The translations under genes and the position numbers were made by a program. Below the pieces are notes generated by a model that searched no databases, was not told where the DNA came from, and was given only the letters and a program-made list of their open reading frames with translations. A stretch of 64,000 nucleotides of DNA from the sequence record OL615013; one strand, written 5' to 3'. The stretch is from Shigella phage ChubbyThor. Shown here piece by piece: positions 20,370 to 55,411 of the stretch (position 1 is its first letter; each line of letters opens with the position of its first letter).

Positions 20370-20924
20370 ATGAAATATTTTGAGAAGTTTCCCCTTGTTT
20401 GGCATCAATTGCAAGATGTCCAAGAGAATGACCAGGTGCTGTTACAGAACTTAACGCGCCGGGTAATGATCTTACAGAAAATTAAGGACATCGAAGGGCT
20501 TCTCCTGCCGTATACGATCCAAGAGGGGGAAACCCCAAGGTCTTTCGCAGAACGCGTTTACGGATCCTTCGAGTTGTTTTGGATACCTTGTCTGATAAAC
20601 GGCATCATGGACATCAATAAGGACTGGCCGAAACCGGAACGTCGTATTGTTGAAGAACTGACTGCAGACTATGGCATCGATGGTATGTGGGATACAGCCT
20701 ATTATGTCGACCAGTTCAACAATGTGACCGACGCCCGTGCGATCAAATTTGCGTATAACCTGGACCTGGATGAGCCGTCCATAATTGCTAACTATGGTCT
20801 GACGGCAGTTTCATATCATGATGATGCAATCAGTAAGAACGAAGCCAAACGGAACATCCAAGTACTCGACCCAGATTATGTGTCTTCGTTTGTCAATCAG
20901 CTGGAGCAGGAGTTGGCGAAATGA
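20370..20924 (+). CDS. Putative baseplate/tail assembly protein
   Basis: ORF in structural block, ATGA-coupled to next gene. Confidence 0.35.
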   Translation: MKYFEKFPLVWHQLQDVQENDQVLLQNLTRRVMILQKIKDIEGLLLPYTIQEGETPRSFAERVYGSFELFWIPCLINGIMDINKDWPKPERRIVEELTADYGIDGMWDTAYYVDQFNNVTDARAIKFAYNLDLDEPSIIANYGLTAVSYHDDAISKNEAKRNIQVLDPDYVSSFVNQLEQELAK

Positions 20925-22309
20925 TCGAAAACAGAGAGACCCAAGACGGTATTGTAACACCGTCAACAACATTTGACCTGAAGTATATGGCGATCCTCCC
21001 TCATACACCCCAGGGCGGAACACCAACGCCATACGACCTGACGGCGTTGTTTGAGGAGTTCAACGTCTTCCAGGATCTGGGTCTTGAAGGGAAGTCATCT
21101 CCATCGCTTACAGCCAATGTCTTGATAAAAGAGGGGTGGGACATTCTGGACACAATGCCTATCTTGGGTGGTGAAGAAGTTGTGGTGTCATTCAAGAGTC
21201 CGGCGGCCTCGGATTACACCACTCTCTCCCTGCGCGTGGCGCGGGTAGGGCGCGTGGCTGATGAGTCCAACAGCTCGTCCAAGAAAGCATTCTGGTTGCA
21301 CATGGTGACTACCGATGCCTACAAGGACAGCATGATCCGCTGCTCCCTCGGTCTTGACGGTTCGTACTCTGACATGGCAAAGGTAATCTTCAACCAGCTG
21401 GAGTCGCGCACCAAGTTCGAAGACATCGACCCGTCATATGGCATTCAAGAGCGATTCGCCACCCCGCTCTGGCCTGTGCTGCGATCTATTGATTATATGG
21501 CGAGCCGTTCTTATGACGAATTGTTCATGCCATTCGTCTTCTATGAAGACTTCAATGGCTATCACTTCAAGAGCCTGACGACGTTGTTCAACCAGGGCAG
21601 CCAGTCATTGACGGCAGAAGAGAAGCAGGAACTGGCTCAGCAGAACAAGTTATTCCGTGATCCTCAGGACGCGCCGCTCATGCAGGATAACAACTTCAAC
21701 TCTGAGCGTTTCATGCGCACTATCATTAAGGCAGAGAAGAAGCTGGCGCGTGACCAGTTCATGGCAAACTACCGTGATGTCCTGGCGGTGAATGAGCGTG
21801 TATACGACTTTGAGACCAAGACAGTCACCCCTACACAGCGCATCTACACTGAGTGGTTTGCAGAGACGGCTCACCTTGACCCATTCCCGATGTTCTCAGA
21901 TGAATTCGATCGTCAGAACGTCCGTTATATTGAAGCCCAACCGGATGGAGCGGAGCAGATTGATTATGCTCGTCGTGTTATCAACTTCAGTCTTGCCAGT
22001 ACTGTGATGCGCGTGTTGCTCGTTGGTGATAACCGCCTGAACGTCGGCCAGGTGTTCTACATCGAAGACCAGTCCAACCGTCCTAAGAAGAACGAAAACC
22101 TGGCAGAGTTAAGTAAGCTATCGACAGGCCACTATATCGTGACCAAAGTACGTCACAAGATTTCCCGCCTGACCAAAGATTATCAGTGCATCGCTGAGAT
22201 TGCCAAGGACAGTTTGCTGGAGCAGGTGCTTCCACCTCAGACCAATCAGACAACTGCTTCCACCACTACTCCTCAGGCGATTGAGAAAGGCCAAGCACAG
22301 AAGGTTTAA
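20921..22309 (+). CDS. Putative baseplate hub protein (gp27-like by position)
   Basis: Large ORF immediately upstream of the tape measure gene. Confidence 0.35.
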   Translation: MIENRETQDGIVTPSTTFDLKYMAILPHTPQGGTPTPYDLTALFEEFNVFQDLGLEGKSSPSLTANVLIKEGWDILDTMPILGGEEVVVSFKSPAASDYTTLSLRVARVGRVADESNSSSKKAFWLHMVTTDAYKDSMIRCSLGLDGSYSDMAKVIFNQLESRTKFEDIDPSYGIQERFATPLWPVLRSIDYMASRSYDELFMPFVFYEDFNGYHFKSLTTLFNQGSQSLTAEEKQELAQQNKLFRDPQDAPLMQDNNFNSERFMRTIIKAEKKLARDQFMANYRDVLAVNERVYDFETKTVTPTQRIYTEWFAETAHLDPFPMFSDEFDRQNVRYIEAQPDGAEQIDYARRVINFSLASTVMRVLLVGDNRLNVGQVFYIEDQSNRPKKNENLAELSKLSTGHYIVTKVRHKISRLTKDYQCIAEIAKDSLLEQVLPPQTNQTTASTTTPQAIEKGQAQKV

Positions 22310-22320
22310 CGAGGTGACCC

Positions 22321-24267
22321 ATGGCACAGGAAGCAACGAACAATGATGTTGTCAAAGTTCTAGACAAGATCAAGGCGGAGATGATGCAGCGCAAACAACT
22401 CCGCGCTCAGAATGAAACCAACAAACAGCTTGACCGGATGAACAAGAATCTGGCCAAGCTGGAATCTGCTGCTAAACAGGACACCAAGGCCGAGTCCAAG
22501 CCATTTGAAATCCGCATCCCGACGGTCAATGAGATCGTCATGGGATTCGCTCGCATGTCTCCGATCTTCACCCGCGATTTCGGCGTATGGATGAAGGATA
22601 CCGTCGATGTGGGCAACGAAGGCAATCGGGAACTGGAGAACATCGCAGGCAAAATTGACCGCCTCGGCGAGATCACCCGCATGCCAACAGATGACACGTC
22701 CCTGGAGTATCTGAACCTCATCTCAGATCAGTTGAAGTCGGCCAATGATGACAGCCTCAAGCGCATGGACGAGCAGAGTGTGTCTCTGGTTCGTGTAGGA
22801 TCATTCCTGAACATGATCGACGGAGTGATGATCGAGGTTCGTGATGATGTTGCTGAACTGAAAAAGAACTCCGATGACAGCCTTACTCGCTTGTCTAGCA
22901 TTGAAGACAAGATTGGGCGCACGGGTGGTCATATCGTTGGAGCGCTGACACGCATCTTTGATGAAGACCAGAAGTGGCGTGAGAAGGACGAGATGCGCCG
23001 TGGGGAAACCGACAAAGAAACGGGTGGTCATCCTCAGGCGAGTTCTGTTATACCCAAAGACGATGACCAGAAAGACGATTCCTCCGGTATCGGGGCGGCG
23101 GTGGCGGCCATGCTTGGCCTGAATGCACTGAAGGGATTCCTGCTCAAGCCATTCAAGATCATCGGTGGCGTTGTCGGGGCTTTCCTCGGTATGTTCTCCA
23201 AGCTGGGAGAAGGTATCACCAAACTTCTGGGTCCATTTGGGAAGGTGTTCAAGTTCCTGAAAGTCGGTCCACTGGCTCTTCTGTCTATGATCTGGGACTT
23301 CGGTAAAGGCTTCATTGATGCGAAGGAGATCCTGGGTAAAGGTGCTGTCACGATAGTTGACCGAGTACGGGCGGGCATATCCGAGTTGGTCGGCGGCTTT
23401 GGTGATCTATTTGACTGGGTGTCCAAGATCTTTGGCTTCGATACAGAGGCGGGAGAAACCCTGCGCAAATATACCCTCATGCTCACTGAGGCTCCCGCTC
23501 GCTGGCTGAATGGTATTGTAGACTGGATTAGTAACGACTTGTTTGCAGGGATCGGGAGAGGGACGTCTCTTACGGATATCCCTGGCAAGCTGGCAGACAA
23601 CCTTCAGTCGGAATTGATGAAGCTGGTCGACTGGATCACAGGTGGCATCAGTGGTGTTATCGACGAGGGCATGGGTGTCGCCAACAAGGTCATTGACGAT
23701 ATCAAGAAGGGTTTTGCCGAAAACGTGAAGAAGCCTTTCTTCAACATGCTGAACGCTATCACCAACGCGATGTTCGATATCGTTGACAAATTCGTCAGCA
23801 TCATCCCAGACGCTCTGGGTGGACAGGCTGCGAAGCAGAAGATGGATGAGGCTCGCCAGTCTATGCTGATTGGCACTGATGAGAATCCGTCTCCTAATAC
23901 GACAGCGGCCTCGCAGCCACAGACGCCACCACAACCGAACATTGATCCACAAACGCTGACTCCGATACCTTCTGGTGTGTCTTCAGATTACAAGAATGTG
24001 ACTGATGACCGCACCTCTCAGCTGAAAGATGCGTATGGTTCTATTGGGGGTGGTACTCTGGGTGGGGCTATGCCATCACAAGGGAGGGCGCTGTCTAATA
24101 TTGAACAAGTGCAAGGCGGCTATTCACCGCCTCCAGCCAGCGTCGTAATGCCAGTGCAGCAGAATGTGGATGCTTCTAAGAAGATCAACACGACCAATAA
24201 CTTCAACAGCTCATCCCTTGAGCCTGAGAACAAAACAGATAATTCCCGCATCCTGTGGGAATGGTAA
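22321..24267 (+). CDS. Tail tape measure / tail length determinator (T4 gp29-like)
   Basis: N-terminal coiled-coil-like region, central Gly-rich hydrophobic repeats (GIGAAVAAMLGLNALKGF...GGVVGAFLGMF), size 648 aa. Confidence 0.6.
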   Translation: MAQEATNNDVVKVLDKIKAEMMQRKQLRAQNETNKQLDRMNKNLAKLESAAKQDTKAESKPFEIRIPTVNEIVMGFARMSPIFTRDFGVWMKDTVDVGNEGNRELENIAGKIDRLGEITRMPTDDTSLEYLNLISDQLKSANDDSLKRMDEQSVSLVRVGSFLNMIDGVMIEVRDDVAELKKNSDDSLTRLSSIEDKIGRTGGHIVGALTRIFDEDQKWREKDEMRRGETDKETGGHPQASSVIPKDDDQKDDSSGIGAAVAAMLGLNALKGFLLKPFKIIGGVVGAFLGMFSKLGEGITKLLGPFGKVFKFLKVGPLALLSMIWDFGKGFIDAKEILGKGAVTIVDRVRAGISELVGGFGDLFDWVSKIFGFDTEAGETLRKYTLMLTEAPARWLNGIVDWISNDLFAGIGRGTSLTDIPGKLADNLQSELMKLVDWITGGISGVIDEGMGVANKVIDDIKKGFAENVKKPFFNMLNAITNAMFDIVDKFVSIIPDALGGQAAKQKMDEARQSMLIGTDENPSPNTTAASQPQTPPQPNIDPQTLTPIPSGVSSDYKNVTDDRTSQLKDAYGSIGGGTLGGAMPSQGRALSNIEQVQGGYSPPPASVVMPVQQNVDASKKINTTNNFNSSSLEPENKTDNSRILWEW

Positions 24268-44264: not shown

Positions 44265-44766
44265 TACTTTTCTCCAGTTCATAATCGCGCTCCACAACAT
44301 ATTGGTAGACACGCATCTTAATATAGTCGGCACCACCTGCTGAAGACAGCACCCTCCATCCACTACTGAGGGCATTCATCTTATATTGACCAACCCCCTC
44401 TTGAAAATAACTTTTAATCTGTTCCAGCTTTCGCCCACGATGATAATAAGAGATGAGTTCACCGATAACAATACAATCGGGATAATTTTTGTCAAGGGTG
44501 TCAATATTGCGGTGGACATAGACAGGCAACACTTCTTCATCGTCGATAGGGCTGTAGCACGGGTCTACGATGACCACCTGTAGGCCATACGACAATAAAT
44601 CCTTGACGCCCAGACGACAGAACTTATAATCTTCGTGCTTCATTGCCACCTGGAGAATATTCTCTTTCTTGGCATAATCGGACAGGAAGATAAAGAAGTC
44701 TGTGTTGGGATCGGGATATTGTATAGACAATTCTTTGCCTATTTCACTAAAACAAAATCCGCGCAT
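44242..44766 (-). CDS. Hypothetical protein
   Basis: Start set at second ATG with GAGG SD. Confidence 0.4.
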   Translation of the reverse strand: MRGFCFSEIGKELSIQYPDPNTDFFIFLSDYAKKENILQVAMKHEDYKFCRLGVKDLLSYGLQVVIVDPCYSPIDDEEVLPVYVHRNIDTLDKNYPDCIVIGELISYYHRGRKLEQIKSYFQEGVGQYKMNALSSGWRVLSSAGGADYIKMRVYQYVVERDYELEKSNAKRKTR

Positions 44767-44815
44767 TTTCATTCCTCGTTATAATTACTCTTACAATATA
44801 CCGTGGAGATACATT

Positions 44816-45622
44816 ATGAATTTGCCATCATTGCCCAGAACAGAAAAGACATATAAAAGCGACTTTTGGCCTACTGTGATCAAATATCGCGCCTTTACTG
44901 CGGGGCAACAAACTTTATTACTTCAGGTGTCAGATCCGCAAACGCCGATTGAAGAACGCGCGGCCATGATGGAGAGCCTCTTCAGCGAATGTGTAAATGC
45001 AGGTGCGCCATTCAGCAAACTACCAATCGGTGTTGTCGAAGAAGTGTTCATCCGTATGCGCATGATCGCCATCGGCGAATTGATGAAGATTCGCTACAAG
45101 TGCAATAATCAGGTTGAAGAAACGATCGATCTGGGAGATGGCCAAGAAAAGCGCCAGATGGTTCCCTGTGAGCAGGAACTGACTCTGCCTATCCCGCTGA
45201 ACAATGTAAAATGCATTGCTCAGGACGGCTTCCAGGAGACGTTTGACCTGCCGGGTGGCTATCACCTCAAGATGCGCCAACCTTCCTTCTCGGACGCCAC
45301 GGCGCTGTCTGATGCTGTAAGTGTTGAGATGATGCTGGCCACCTTTATCGACTGCCTGTACGATGATGACGGTCAGGTGTGGAAGGTTGAGAATCCTGAA
45401 GAAATCGGGATCACTCCGGAAGAGGCTACCGAGCGCCGCCGTGTGAAAGAAGCGTTTGTTGAGTGGGTGAAGGATAACATCGAATCAGATGTCATCGACA
45501 GCATTACGAAGAACTTCTTCCACAAAATACCGCGCATCCACTACAAGAGTTCAATCAAGTGTCCGAAGTGTGGTAAGGAACACAAGATCGAATTCAATAG
45601 CATTAATGAAATTTTCATCTAA
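44816..45622 (+). CDS. Hypothetical protein with C-terminal CPKCG zinc-ribbon-like motif
   Basis: GGAG SD 8 nt upstream; TATAAT hexamer about 30 nt upstream; ORF-track start rejected. Confidence 0.4.
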   Translation: MNLPSLPRTEKTYKSDFWPTVIKYRAFTAGQQTLLLQVSDPQTPIEERAAMMESLFSECVNAGAPFSKLPIGVVEEVFIRMRMIAIGELMKIRYKCNNQVEETIDLGDGQEKRQMVPCEQELTLPIPLNNVKCIAQDGFQETFDLPGGYHLKMRQPSFSDATALSDAVSVEMMLATFIDCLYDDDGQVWKVENPEEIGITPEEATERRRVKEAFVEWVKDNIESDVIDSITKNFFHKIPRIHYKSSIKCPKCGKEHKIEFNSINEIFI

Positions 45623-45769
45623 TGTTTGAAACTGATTTACTATCCTACTTCGTGATGTGTGATGAATTGAAGTTACACGGCTATAGCATATTTGAAATCA
45701 ACGAGTCGATGCCGTGGCATCTTGACTTGTTAACCGAAGCCCTCAAGGTCAGGTTGTCTAAGAAACAGT

Positions 45770-45795
45770 AATCCCGCTTCGGCGGGATTTTTATT
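45770..45795 (+). terminator. Rho-independent terminator
   Basis: ATCCCGC-TTCG-GCGGGAT followed by TTTTTATT. Confidence 0.65.
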
Positions 45796-46132
45796 GGCTT
45801 AACTGTAAAACAGGTTAACGCGTGCTCTCTTTACCTGAAATTGTTATAATGGGCTTGTTCCTGAGTCATTTGTTGGGGATCGTCTATTTTGAATCAGATT
45901 GTCAGTAAAATACCATTTTTCAAGGAGTGTTCTGAGGTGTACAGTTATTGCCTCGCTCTTATGCCTCCATGGCATTGGAATGGTGCTGCCTGCATAAGGC
46001 GGTGTGATGAGCGAAGCGAATAGGATCGAATAACAAATAAAATGAACGGAAGCAGAGCTTCCTATAGTATATAAGGCAAAATCCGCTGCGCATAAATACC
46101 TTCAAATCCTTGTTTGACAACCGGAACTCAAT

Positions 46133-47743
46133 ATGTTAGACAATATGAGATGGTTTTATGGCACCGTTGAAGATGTCAACGATCCAGACCAAAACGGGCG
46201 CGTCGCCGTCCGCATCTATGGCGTCCACACTGATGACACCGTCCTCCTGCCTACGGACAAACTCCCATGGGCGAAGGTGCTGATGCCTGCTTCAAACGCC
46301 TCCTCTGCTGGTTTAGGTTGGTCTCCAACGGGTATCATTCCTGGCACTGAGGTCATGGGGTTCGCCCTTGACGAAGCATACCAGAACTTACGCATCACCT
46401 GGACTTGGCCTGGGGCAAATCCCACTGATGGAGCTGACACGAATCCGCTGGCTCTCGGACAGGTCGTTCAATCTGTAGAACGTCAGGCGTACAACGCTGT
46501 CACTGACGTTCCTGTGAAACAAGAAGACGAACCACAACCAGATCCACAACCACCTGTTGGCGGGTATGATCCTGAAAAATGGATGACCATCGCTCGTGGC
46601 GAGCTGGGTGTCAAGGAGTACGCCGGAAAGTTCAACAACAACCCGCGCATTATAGAATATCACAAGACAACCTCCCTTGGCGCTTCTGAAGATGAAGTGT
46701 CGTGGTGTGCGGCGTTCGTGGGCTGGGTTATGTTGCAGGCTGGATACACGTCTACGCGCTCCGCTCTTGCCCGATCTTACCTTACATGGGGTAGTGCACT
46801 GTCAGCACCACAATATGGTGCTATCGTAGTCTTCCGGCGCGGTAACAACCCTACATTTGGACACGTGGCGTTTGTACAGAAGTTCGACGCAAACTATGTC
46901 TGGTGTATCGGTGGCAACCAATCCGATTCAGTGAAGGTCAGCCGCTTCAGCCGTTCGTCAGTCCTGGGCTACCGCTGGCCTGGTCCGGCGAATACAGCTT
47001 CAGCCGCCCCAGCGCAACAGAACGGGAAATGGTCTGAGCCTATCCCTGATCGTACCCCAAAAGAGCAGGCAACTCCGGCTCCTACAGGGCGCGTACAGGA
47101 TATTGATAACACGGGCGAAACTATGGTTCCGGCAGCGGGTGGCTCCAAGTACCCGTACAACAACGTCATGGCATCCCGAGCAGGTCACATAATGGAGGTG
47201 GACGACACTCCTGGTGGTGAGCGTCTTCATTGGATGCACATGTCCGGTTCCTACAAACAGATGCTCCCGAACGGCGACGTCGTCAACAAGTCAGTGAAGG
47301 ATCATTATGACCTGACCATGTTTGACAAGCGCTATTATGTCGGCGGGGACCACAACCTGACGGTCAAAGGAACTGAAGTGCAGCGCAAGACTGGCGAGGT
47401 CTATCACCTTCACTCCAACAACTACTCCAACGTGGTTGCGGGTACAGCGCTGATGAAATTCAGTGACCTGGCTGAGTTGCAAGCACAGAATATTCTGCGC
47501 ATCATCTGCGAGACTCTGGAGGTCGGCGGGACGTTGAAGGTTCCTAAGATTCTGGCAACAGAGATCATCGCCGACAAACTGACGGTTGCTCAGACGATTA
47601 ATGGTAACATCATATATGCCGAAGGTGCTGGTCGCGCTTCTTCTCTGTCAGGTGCAACCCCTGCATCCCCTACGGGACCAGGTGAGATTGATATCAAGGC
47701 AGAATTAAAAGACAATGGTGGTAATTTCGGCACCGAAGAGTAA
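46133..47743 (+). CDS. Baseplate central hub/spike protein (gp5-like) with internal CHAP/NlpC-P60-like peptidase domain
   Basis: N-terminus WFYGTVEDVNDPDQNGRVAVRIYGVHTDD resembles gp5/VgrG OB-fold; central block with conserved Cys (SWCAAFVGW) and His (FGHVAFV) resembles CHAP amidases. Confidence 0.55.
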   Translation: MLDNMRWFYGTVEDVNDPDQNGRVAVRIYGVHTDDTVLLPTDKLPWAKVLMPASNASSAGLGWSPTGIIPGTEVMGFALDEAYQNLRITWTWPGANPTDGADTNPLALGQVVQSVERQAYNAVTDVPVKQEDEPQPDPQPPVGGYDPEKWMTIARGELGVKEYAGKFNNNPRIIEYHKTTSLGASEDEVSWCAAFVGWVMLQAGYTSTRSALARSYLTWGSALSAPQYGAIVVFRRGNNPTFGHVAFVQKFDANYVWCIGGNQSDSVKVSRFSRSSVLGYRWPGPANTASAAPAQQNGKWSEPIPDRTPKEQATPAPTGRVQDIDNTGETMVPAAGGSKYPYNNVMASRAGHIMEVDDTPGGERLHWMHMSGSYKQMLPNGDVVNKSVKDHYDLTMFDKRYYVGGDHNLTVKGTEVQRKTGEVYHLHSNNYSNVVAGTALMKFSDLAELQAQNILRIICETLEVGGTLKVPKILATEIIADKLTVAQTINGNIIYAEGAGRASSLSGATPASPTGPGEIDIKAELKDNGGNFGTEE

Positions 47744-47816: not shown

Positions 47817-48197
47817 ATGAAAGAGTACAAAGATGTCGATCTGAAGTTCGGCATGCACCCGGTGACCAAAGATGTCACCATGAAATCAGGCGTATACGCT
47901 GTCTTGCAATCTGTGCGGAATATTGTCATGTCTTCAGCCGGTGACTGGCCCACTTATCCTGGGATCGGCGCGGGGCTTTATGGGCTGCTGGGTGAAAACA
48001 CGACACCGACTATCCAGGTAGATGTGAAGAACAAAGTAGAGGACGCCATCGCCCTGTATGAACCCAGGGCAGAGGTAGAAGAAGTCACGGTGAGTCTGTC
48101 AGAGGATTACCACTCTCTGGGCGTGACCATCACATTCTATGTGGTCAACAATCCAGATCCAATAACAGACACCGTGTGGTTGAAAAGGACGAATTAG
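47817..48197 (+). CDS. Baseplate wedge protein (gp25/GPW-like)
   Basis: Size and pattern (KDV..HPVTKDV...NIVMSSAGDWPTYP) typical of the gp25/GPW family; GAGAGGA SD. Confidence 0.65.
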   Translation: MKEYKDVDLKFGMHPVTKDVTMKSGVYAVLQSVRNIVMSSAGDWPTYPGIGAGLYGLLGENTTPTIQVDVKNKVEDAIALYEPRAEVEEVTVSLSEDYHSLGVTITFYVVNNPDPITDTVWLKRTN

Positions 48198-54547: not shown

Positions 54548-55342
54548 TTAACTGAAACTCTTGTATGCAGCAGCGAGCTTCGTGTCGTACTGGTTCTTGG
54601 CATACGCCGGACCATTATAGCGCCGCGCAAACTCAGCCCAGTTCTTGTCCTTCAGAGCCTGCCAGAGCTTGGCGTCGGCCTTGATGAACTTCACGAATGC
54701 CATCAGATGAGCACGTTCGCCCGTCAAGAAGTCATTGAACATCTCCTTGGCGTTGGCGTACCCACAGACCTGGCAGTTGAAGCCCATGATCTGGAAGAGG
54801 CCGTAAGAGGCGCTCTCGTACGCACAATCCTCGTCGATGTTAATGGCTGCATGGAGTCGATCCAACTCCGCGTCGCCGCCCGTGTACCCGCCTGCCACTG
54901 GACTGACAAGGGTTGGATACATTTGACCAGCCGCGTTCGCCCGAGCCTGCCCGAACTTCGCCATCATCTTCTTGTACATGATGTGACGCTCAAACAACGT
55001 CTTGATCTTACCAGACTTGGTGAAGCCAGTGCCACGGGATTCAACCTGATTGACTGCCTTCACAGAGGCGAGGTCAACTCCCAGCTGGTTGGCTGCGTCG
55101 ATAAGGTCAGCCTCAGTCAGGTGATCCTGATGGGCGTCTCCGGCGTTGCGAATAGCATAGGAGGTCTTTGGACCCACAATACCATCAATGACAAGCCCCG
55201 CACCCGCCTGAACAGTCTTGACAGCGTTCTCTGTTGCCTTACCAAAGATGCCGTCAGCGACGAGGGTGAAGCCGATTTTGTTGAGGCTCTGCTGAAGTGA
55301 TTTGACTTCAGTGCCACGGTTGCCAAGTTTTAGAATGGCCAT
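54548..55342 (-). CDS. Endolysin: N-terminal peptidoglycan-binding domain plus muramidase-like catalytic domain
   Basis: PG_binding_1-like repeats (GxEVKSLQQSLNKIGF...DGIFGKATENAVK); start set at ATG 55342 with GGAGG SD. Confidence 0.65.
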   Translation of the reverse strand: MAILKLGNRGTEVKSLQQSLNKIGFTLVADGIFGKATENAVKTVQAGAGLVIDGIVGPKTSYAIRNAGDAHQDHLTEADLIDAANQLGVDLASVKAVNQVESRGTGFTKSGKIKTLFERHIMYKKMMAKFGQARANAAGQMYPTLVSPVAGGYTGGDAELDRLHAAINIDEDCAYESASYGLFQIMGFNCQVCGYANAKEMFNDFLTGERAHLMAFVKFIKADAKLWQALKDKNWAEFARRYNGPAYAKNQYDTKLAAAYKSFS

Positions 55343-55411
55343 AAGAAAATACCTCCGCAATGAATGCGAAGGTATTTAAAGTGAAAGTGAACTACTTGAG
55401 GAACTGCTGCA

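Follow-up and report, generated by a model that had tools for sequence, protein, structure and literature searches.

The stretch of Shigella phage ChubbyThor DNA analysed here (record OL615013; 64,000 nucleotides (nt), hereafter the window) encodes a central spike, or baseplate hub protein, of the T4 gp5 type (46133-47743, plus strand). The gene product is probably a tail-tip puncturing protein of an Ag3-type (ViI-like) Ackermannviridae myovirus, in which a papain-like cysteine hydrolase of the TIGR02594 family, with the predicted triad Cys192-His244-Asn262, replaces the GH24 lysozyme between proline-rich linkers. We put the probability of this reading, protein identity and enzyme exchange taken jointly, at about 0.8. 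The open reading frame (ORF) listed at this position was clean and real, with an ATG start and 536 amino acids (aa) plus a stop codon. The protein showed 100% identity to gp076 of Shigella phage Ag3. At the DNA level the gene was 99.3% identical to the Ag3 record NC_013693; elsewhere, the window and this record differ by indels. Homologues counted as full-length (coverage of at least 80%) were found in 279 phage records, with Salmonella, Escherichia, Klebsiella, Dickeya, Shigella, Enterobacter, Serratia and others as hosts.

Sequence comparison and structure prediction suggest that the spike is organized as T4 gp5 is, with an OB domain, a linker, an enzyme, a second linker and a needle, the enzyme cassette having been swapped in place. 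The N-terminal OB-fold domain (aa 1-96, 46133-46420; all spike features lie on the plus strand) matched Pfam Gp5_OB over aa 35-97 (expectation value (E) 3.5e-13; 50.4 bits against a cut-off of 25) and was 42% identical over 97 aa to aa 6-102 of the T4-type gp5 of RB14. Its counterpart in T4 docks into the gp27 hub. Linker 1 (aa 97-143, 46421-46561) is 17% proline and was predicted to be disordered, with a predicted local distance difference test score (pLDDT) below 50 over aa 97-139. The enzymatic module follows (aa 144-285, 46562-46987), at the position of the T4 gp5 lysozyme, and then linker 2 (aa 286-337, 46988-47143), also mostly disordered in prediction (pLDDT below 50 over aa 286-341). 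Within linker 2, homology to other gp5 proteins restarts at a W-S-E-P motif (aa 300-303, nt 47030-47041), of which E302 and P303 reached at least 90% conservation across 34 gp5-type proteins. The motif aligned with FKEP in RB14 gp5 and with xxEP in metagenomic gp5 proteins, and the YPYN needle start follows it. The proximal part of the C-terminal needle region (aa 338-536, 47144-47740) corresponds by homology to where the T4 gp5 beta-helix starts, with 37% identity over 97 aa between aa 338-433 of the spike and residues 385-478 of T4 gp5.

Solved T4 gp5 chains matched the spike in two pieces only, aa 3-94 and aa 338-433 (E about 1e-32); in this search the T4 lysozyme domain had no aligned counterpart. 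A Pfam scan of the spike protein gave no Phage_lysozyme match, whereas the T4-type gp5 of RB14, the positive control in the same scan, returned Gp5_OB, Phage_lysozyme, Gp5_C and Gp5_trimer_C. The full-length monomer model, whose overall confidence was low (predicted template modelling score (pTM) 0.31), showed three folded blocks and two low-confidence proline-rich segments (aa 97-143 and 286-341). In this model the OB domain was a block of beta-strands with pLDDT mostly 72-84, falling below 50 at aa 53-66, and the needle region reached pLDDT 69-86 over aa 350-470. The two-piece match to T4 gp5, the three folded blocks, the restart of homology at W-S-E-P and the CHAP and TIGR02594 matches described below therefore point together to a T4 gp5 plan with an exchanged cassette. 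The original prediction, made from the sequence before any database search, had described a gp5-like hub protein with an OB-fold N-terminus, and this description agrees with the Gp5_OB match, the needle-start homology and the synteny.

That prediction had also proposed a CHAP or NlpC/P60 module in place of a lysozyme, and domain search and structure prediction both bore this out. Pfam CHAP matched aa 187-262 (E 8.4e-11; 42.7 bits against a cut-off of 26), and NCBIfam TIGR02594 matched aa 150-282 (E 5.3e-38; 130.3 bits against a cut-off of 70.55) over profile positions 2-132 of 132. The model of aa 140-300, built with a 36-sequence alignment, had a pLDDT of 89 and a pTM of 0.85, and its predicted structure contained a papain-like alpha+beta fold. 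The top Foldseek neighbours of the module in the PDB were MepS, Acd24020, other NlpC/P60 proteins and the CHAP domains of LysK and LysGH15, and the 50-60 matches listed in each of two structure searches included no lysozyme. Its neighbours among predicted viral structures were TIGR02594, CHAP and NlpC/P60 proteins. Most of the nearest structural neighbours were NlpC/P60-family (C40) hydrolases, and those with an activity named in their entries were DL-endopeptidases (CwlO and a Thermus thermophilus protein); MepS is a DD-endopeptidase. By profile, predicted fold and predicted triad, the module is placed in TIGR02594 and the NlpC/P60-CHAP superfamily, as a putative papain-like cysteine peptidase or amidase. 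A single-sequence search found no relative in the PDB (best E 0.19), and a PDB profile search with the 36-sequence alignment was uninformative on the peptidase, its profile being dominated by the GH108 and PG_binding_3 domains of multidomain bacterial homologues. As TIGR02594 has no solved structure detectable by sequence, the module offers a sensible subject for structural studies and for enzybiotic development.

The candidate catalytic Cys and His had been proposed from two motifs, and both were present: SWCAAFVGW at aa 190-198 (nt 46700-46726) and FGHVAFV at aa 242-248 (nt 46856-46876). Cys192 (codon 46706-46708), the predicted nucleophile, sits at the N-terminus of a helix that begins at aa 191-192. 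His244 (codon 46862-46864), the predicted general base, opens the beta-strand 243-251, and Asn262 (codon 46916-46918), the predicted third residue of the triad, lies in a GGNQ motif just past the strand 255-261. A Cys at a helix start, a His at a strand start and an Asn after the next strand, as seen in the models, correspond to the papain-like layout. W191-C192-A193, G243-H244 and G260-G261-N262-Q263 were invariant in 36 homologues, including bacterial TIGR02594 proteins at 40-57% identity, and Cys192, His244 and G-G-N262-Q263 were invariant also in 19 spike-type homologues; the proposed Cys and His are thus conserved in both sets. Among 17 full-length members the peptidase block was the most conserved segment of the spike, with 85% mean identity and 69 of 142 columns invariant (64-78% mean identity in the other segments), which argues for a working enzyme and not a relic.

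Proteus cells with a permeabilised outer membrane are lysed by LysPM2, a 158-aa endolysin of Proteus phage PM-CJR that consists of a single CHAP domain and for which its authors predicted a C47/H96/N115 triad (PMC13461873). In our comparison LysPM2 scored 127.7 bits on TIGR02594 and was 37% identical to the spike module over 137 aa (E 1e-27), with C47, H96 and N115 falling on Cys192, His244 and Asn262. At least one member of the family therefore has demonstrated muralytic activity on an enterobacterial wall. LysPM2 and the spike module share the TIGR02594 family and the predicted Cys-His-Asn triad with its spacing, and LysPM2 acts on a Gram-negative enterobacterial cell wall. The two differ in setting: LysPM2 is a free protein in a holin-endolysin-spanin cassette, for exit, whereas the spike module is built into the virion, presumably for entry. 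In bacterial homologues the domain occurs joined to LysM, PG_binding_1, PG_binding_3 and GH108, and these fusions point to peptidoglycan as the substrate.

Data from related phages and the gene neighbourhood are consistent with a baseplate location. Mass spectrometry of purified virions detected ORF61 of phage LIMEstone1 (PMC3296691), a protein that we found to be 95% identical to the spike. A 'tail associated lysozyme', which may be the homologue of the spike, is also listed in the virion proteome of Vi01-like phages. In the window, the spike gene sits among genes for baseplate hub and wedge proteins. Upstream on the same strand lie a gp26-like baseplate hub subunit (maximal ORF 44702-45622; Pfam T4_baseplate, E 1.6e-45, and Ag3 annotation) and a 49-aa ORF (45622-45771) with a weak match to a gp51-like baseplate hub assembly catalyst (PHROG 634, E 4e-4, and PHROG 9633, E 3e-39). 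Directly downstream, again on the plus strand, is a gp25-like baseplate wedge protein (47817-48197; Pfam GPW_gp25, E 1.6e-8). A separate endolysin, a muramidase with peptidoglycan-binding domains, is encoded elsewhere on the minus strand (54548-55360; Pfam Muramidase, E 6.7e-59; PG_binding_1, E 8.9e-15), so lysis is not the task of the spike enzyme.

These features suggest how the spike may act. The model for the analogy is the T4 cell-puncturing device, reportedly described by Kanamaru et al. in 2002. As in T4 gp5, three copies of the spike would form the needle, and the OB domains would seat it in the baseplate hub. Contraction of the sheath would drive the needle through the outer membrane, after which the three tethered peptidase domains could reach the murein layer and open it locally, allowing the tail tube to pass. 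The predicted cut would fall in the peptide stems, in the cross-links or at the bond between N-acetylmuramic acid (MurNAc) and L-Ala, sparing the glycan strands. Exit at the end of infection would be left to the separate muramidase endolysin.

Several observations weigh against the proposal of a gp5-plan spike with a working cysteine hydrolase. The subfamily signals were split, the Pfam sequence model being CHAP and the structural neighbours mostly NlpC/P60. The predicted fold is compatible alike with a gamma-D-Glu-meso-diaminopimelate endopeptidase, a DD-endopeptidase or a MurNAc-L-Ala amidase, and we found no enzymatic assay of the spike or of any Ackermannviridae homologue in the literature. 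In the distal needle, the Pfam scan of the spike protein gave no Gp5_C or Gp5_trimer_C match. The full-length model is of a monomer and is good for domain boundaries only, neither the trimeric beta-helix nor a masked active site being visible in it. The T4 gp5 maturation site (Ser351/Ala352) could not be aligned with the spike and falls in the non-conserved linker. The candidate for gp27, the hub partner, is a 462-aa protein (20921-22309) that bears this name in LIMEstone1; it matched only PHROG 350, 'tail protein', and neither Pfam nor the PDB gave a sequence match, so that the spike's hub partner would be very divergent from T4 gp27. The next protein after it (22321-24267, 648 aa) was weakly tape-measure-like (E 4e-5).

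Readings other than an endopeptidase differ in how much of the evidence they leave standing. The same architecture could carry an N-acetylmuramoyl-L-alanine amidase, which would detach entire stem peptides from glycan. The family matched in Pfam, CHAP, includes amidases, and one Vibrio Ackermannviridae record labels its homologue 'amidase'; we nevertheless consider an amidase unlikely. The original prediction had the spike cutting peptide cross-links, and of this claim the peptidase or amidase module stands, while the specificity for cross-links is not established. The module might also be a catalytically dead domain, peptidoglycan-binding or purely structural, for which RipD and the 'clip' domain in the weld protein of phage 812 are precedents. 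Inactive NlpC/P60-CHAP folds do occur in baseplates, and the weld clip is a CHAP fold without catalytic residues. In the spike, however, all three residues, Cys, His and Asn, are in place, and they do not vary in the 36 homologues, free-standing enzymes among them; the homologue LysPM2, which shares this triad, is lytic; and the module is the part of the spike under the strongest conservation. A dead domain is on these grounds highly improbable.

Finally, the database label might be correct and the spike a tail lysozyme, that is, a glycosidase. This reading is refuted at the level of both sequence and fold, and we give it practically no chance. A true T4-type gp5 yields a Phage_lysozyme match where the spike yields none, the lysozyme segment of T4 finds nothing to align with, and lysozymes were missing from the structural neighbours listed. 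The label itself can be traced to annotation transfer on the strength of the OB and needle homology. A separate question is whether the exchange of the lysozyme for a cysteine hydrolase was adaptive and not neutral, with a cross-link- or stem-specific endopeptidase replacing lysozyme in Ackermannviridae and in several other lineages whose spikes combine OB and CHAP domains. We regard adaptation as quite unlikely. If it were true, entry would be insensitive to defences aimed at lysozyme, for example periplasmic lysozyme inhibitors or superinfection exclusion of the Spackle type, the entry chemistry (peptidase) would be uncoupled from the exit chemistry (muramidase), and metagenomic spikes with both SLT and CHAP domains would be two-enzyme drills.

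The label 'tail lysozyme' stands in about 280 sequenced Ackermannviridae genomes and is wrong for the enzymatic part. Because the spike lacks the features of a lysozyme, 'tail lysozyme' is a misnomer. A few GenBank records say 'cell wall-associated hydrolase', 'amidase' or 'TIGR02594 family protein', and Pfam domains have been precomputed for these clusters; in the literature on Ackermannviridae we found no paper remarking on the peptidase nature of the spike. The phages concerned, a well-studied group, infect Salmonella, E. coli O157, Shigella, Klebsiella and Dickeya, and many are used in biocontrol; their hosts' murein is probably breached by a cysteine peptidase.

The tail-lysozyme label was also seen on free-standing TIGR02594 proteins, namely gp207 of Vibrio phage ICP1 (L004:3752-4468) and proteins of Pseudomonas phages PAKlein3 and vB_PaeS_C1. 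In ICP1 gp207 (238 aa), a region weakly similar to SleB and peptidoglycan hydrolases precedes the TIGR02594 domain, and its NCBIfam matches included no OB match. The ICP1 and Pseudomonas phage proteins look like endolysins and not hub proteins, and their label therefore appears to be an annotation error spreading from the Ackermannviridae spike.

Two further observations concern the region upstream of the spike gene. A 361-bp non-coding gap (45772-46132) lies between the spike gene and a terminator hairpin (45770-45789) that follows the gp51-like ORF. Conservation of the gap extends to 271 phage records from different Ackermannviridae genera (about 72-82% identity), and nearly all of the records listed leave it unannotated. 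It gave no Rfam match, contained no ORF longer than 53 aa, and showed ordinary RNA folding on the plus strand (z = 0.62). Near 45842 it holds a TATAAT-like element and near 46091 a T4-late-like CATAAATA, and it is probably a promoter or regulatory region. The start of the gp26-like gene was the other point. The T4_baseplate match begins at aa 52 of the maximal ORF (about nt 44855). The product in the Ag3 record has only 218 aa, which would place its start near window position 44966; starting at the ATG at 44816, the product would have 268 aa, in keeping with the 30.6 kDa reported for LIMEstone1 gp26. The start in the deposited Ag3 record is probably too far downstream.

Spikes that combine an OB domain with a peptidase were not confined to close relatives of Ag3. 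An exhaustive search of representative sequences returned 11,945 relatives at E up to 0.001, and the best 150 of these included several distinct 50%-identity clusters with a gp5 OB domain and this peptidase. Short OB+CHAP proteins without a needle were among them (P0128, P0132, P0133, P0144 and P0162; also P0024 and P0025), and in P0125 the peptidase was placed after a Gp5_C repeat. Two metagenomic proteins, P0121 (1129 aa) and P0124 (643 aa), carried Gp5_OB, an SLT lytic transglycosylase, CHAP/TIGR02594 and a needle in series; a single such spike would cut both glycan and peptides. Another gp5-OB protein had an NlpC/P60 domain (P0026), a Vibrio Ackermannviridae version of 1016 aa was annotated 'amidase', and the relative P0053 had a chitosanase-type module and no OB domain on record. 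Lysozyme, SLT, NlpC/P60, CHAP and chitosanase-type modules appear to be interchangeable on the gp5 scaffold.

The gene for P0024, carried on a metagenomic phage contig of 170 kb, is followed closely by a gp25 gene, in the same gp5-then-gp25 order as in the window. The contig (at L003:580-1647) also encodes a protein with an HMUDK_hel domain, presumably named for hydroxymethyl-dUMP kinase, together with PhoH, ClpP and dCMP deaminase. PhoH and dCMP deaminase echo genes around the Ag3 spike, and ClpP echoes the surroundings of ICP1 gp207. The shared PhoH and dCMP deaminase suggest that the contig comes from a phage distantly related to the ViI-like group.

That virions can carry peptidoglycan peptidases is well known. 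The spike was compared with T4 gp5 and with other contractile systems that deliver such enzymes. With T4 gp5 (1K28, 1PDL, 5IV5) it shares the OB domain, the xxEP motif, the beta-helix start, an enzyme between two linkers, a similar length and a location among hub genes. It differs in carrying a predicted TIGR02594 papain-like cysteine hydrolase where T4 has a GH24 lysozyme, and in giving no Gp5_C repeat or Gp5_trimer_C matches in its distal needle. Directly after the spike gene there is no gene 5.1 or 5.4 (PAAR), the window not having been searched for a PAAR-type tip protein.

In the hub 'cleaver' CHAP/C51 domain of phage 812 (9EUF, 9EUM) and the diffocin hub-hydrolase CD1368 (8V3W), a peptidase is borne on a gp27-like hub and directed at Gram-positive targets. 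The Ag3-type enzyme, in contrast, is borne on a gp5-like spike in phages of Gram-negative hosts, and no similarity was detectable at the sequence level (best E 0.19). The original prediction had anticipated a different penetration chemistry. This stands in so far as the enzyme is not a lysozyme; the chemistry is not new for contractile tails, since the phage 812 and diffocin hubs already carry CHAP or NlpC/P60 domains.

The amidase effectors of type VI secretion systems (T6SS; Tae/Tse1) share with the spike module their superfamily and their delivery into the Gram-negative periplasm by a contractile, gp5/gp27-like spike. Stenotrophomonas proteins of the same TIGR02594 family are predicted peptidoglycan-degrading T6SS effectors encoded beside vgrG. 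Unlike the module described here, T6SS effectors are a separate killing cargo with immunity partners and not a covalent part of a spike that serves DNA entry. Set beside these systems, the Ag3-type spike is an uncharacterised and mislabelled domain-swap variant of a known device, a module swap and not a new principle.

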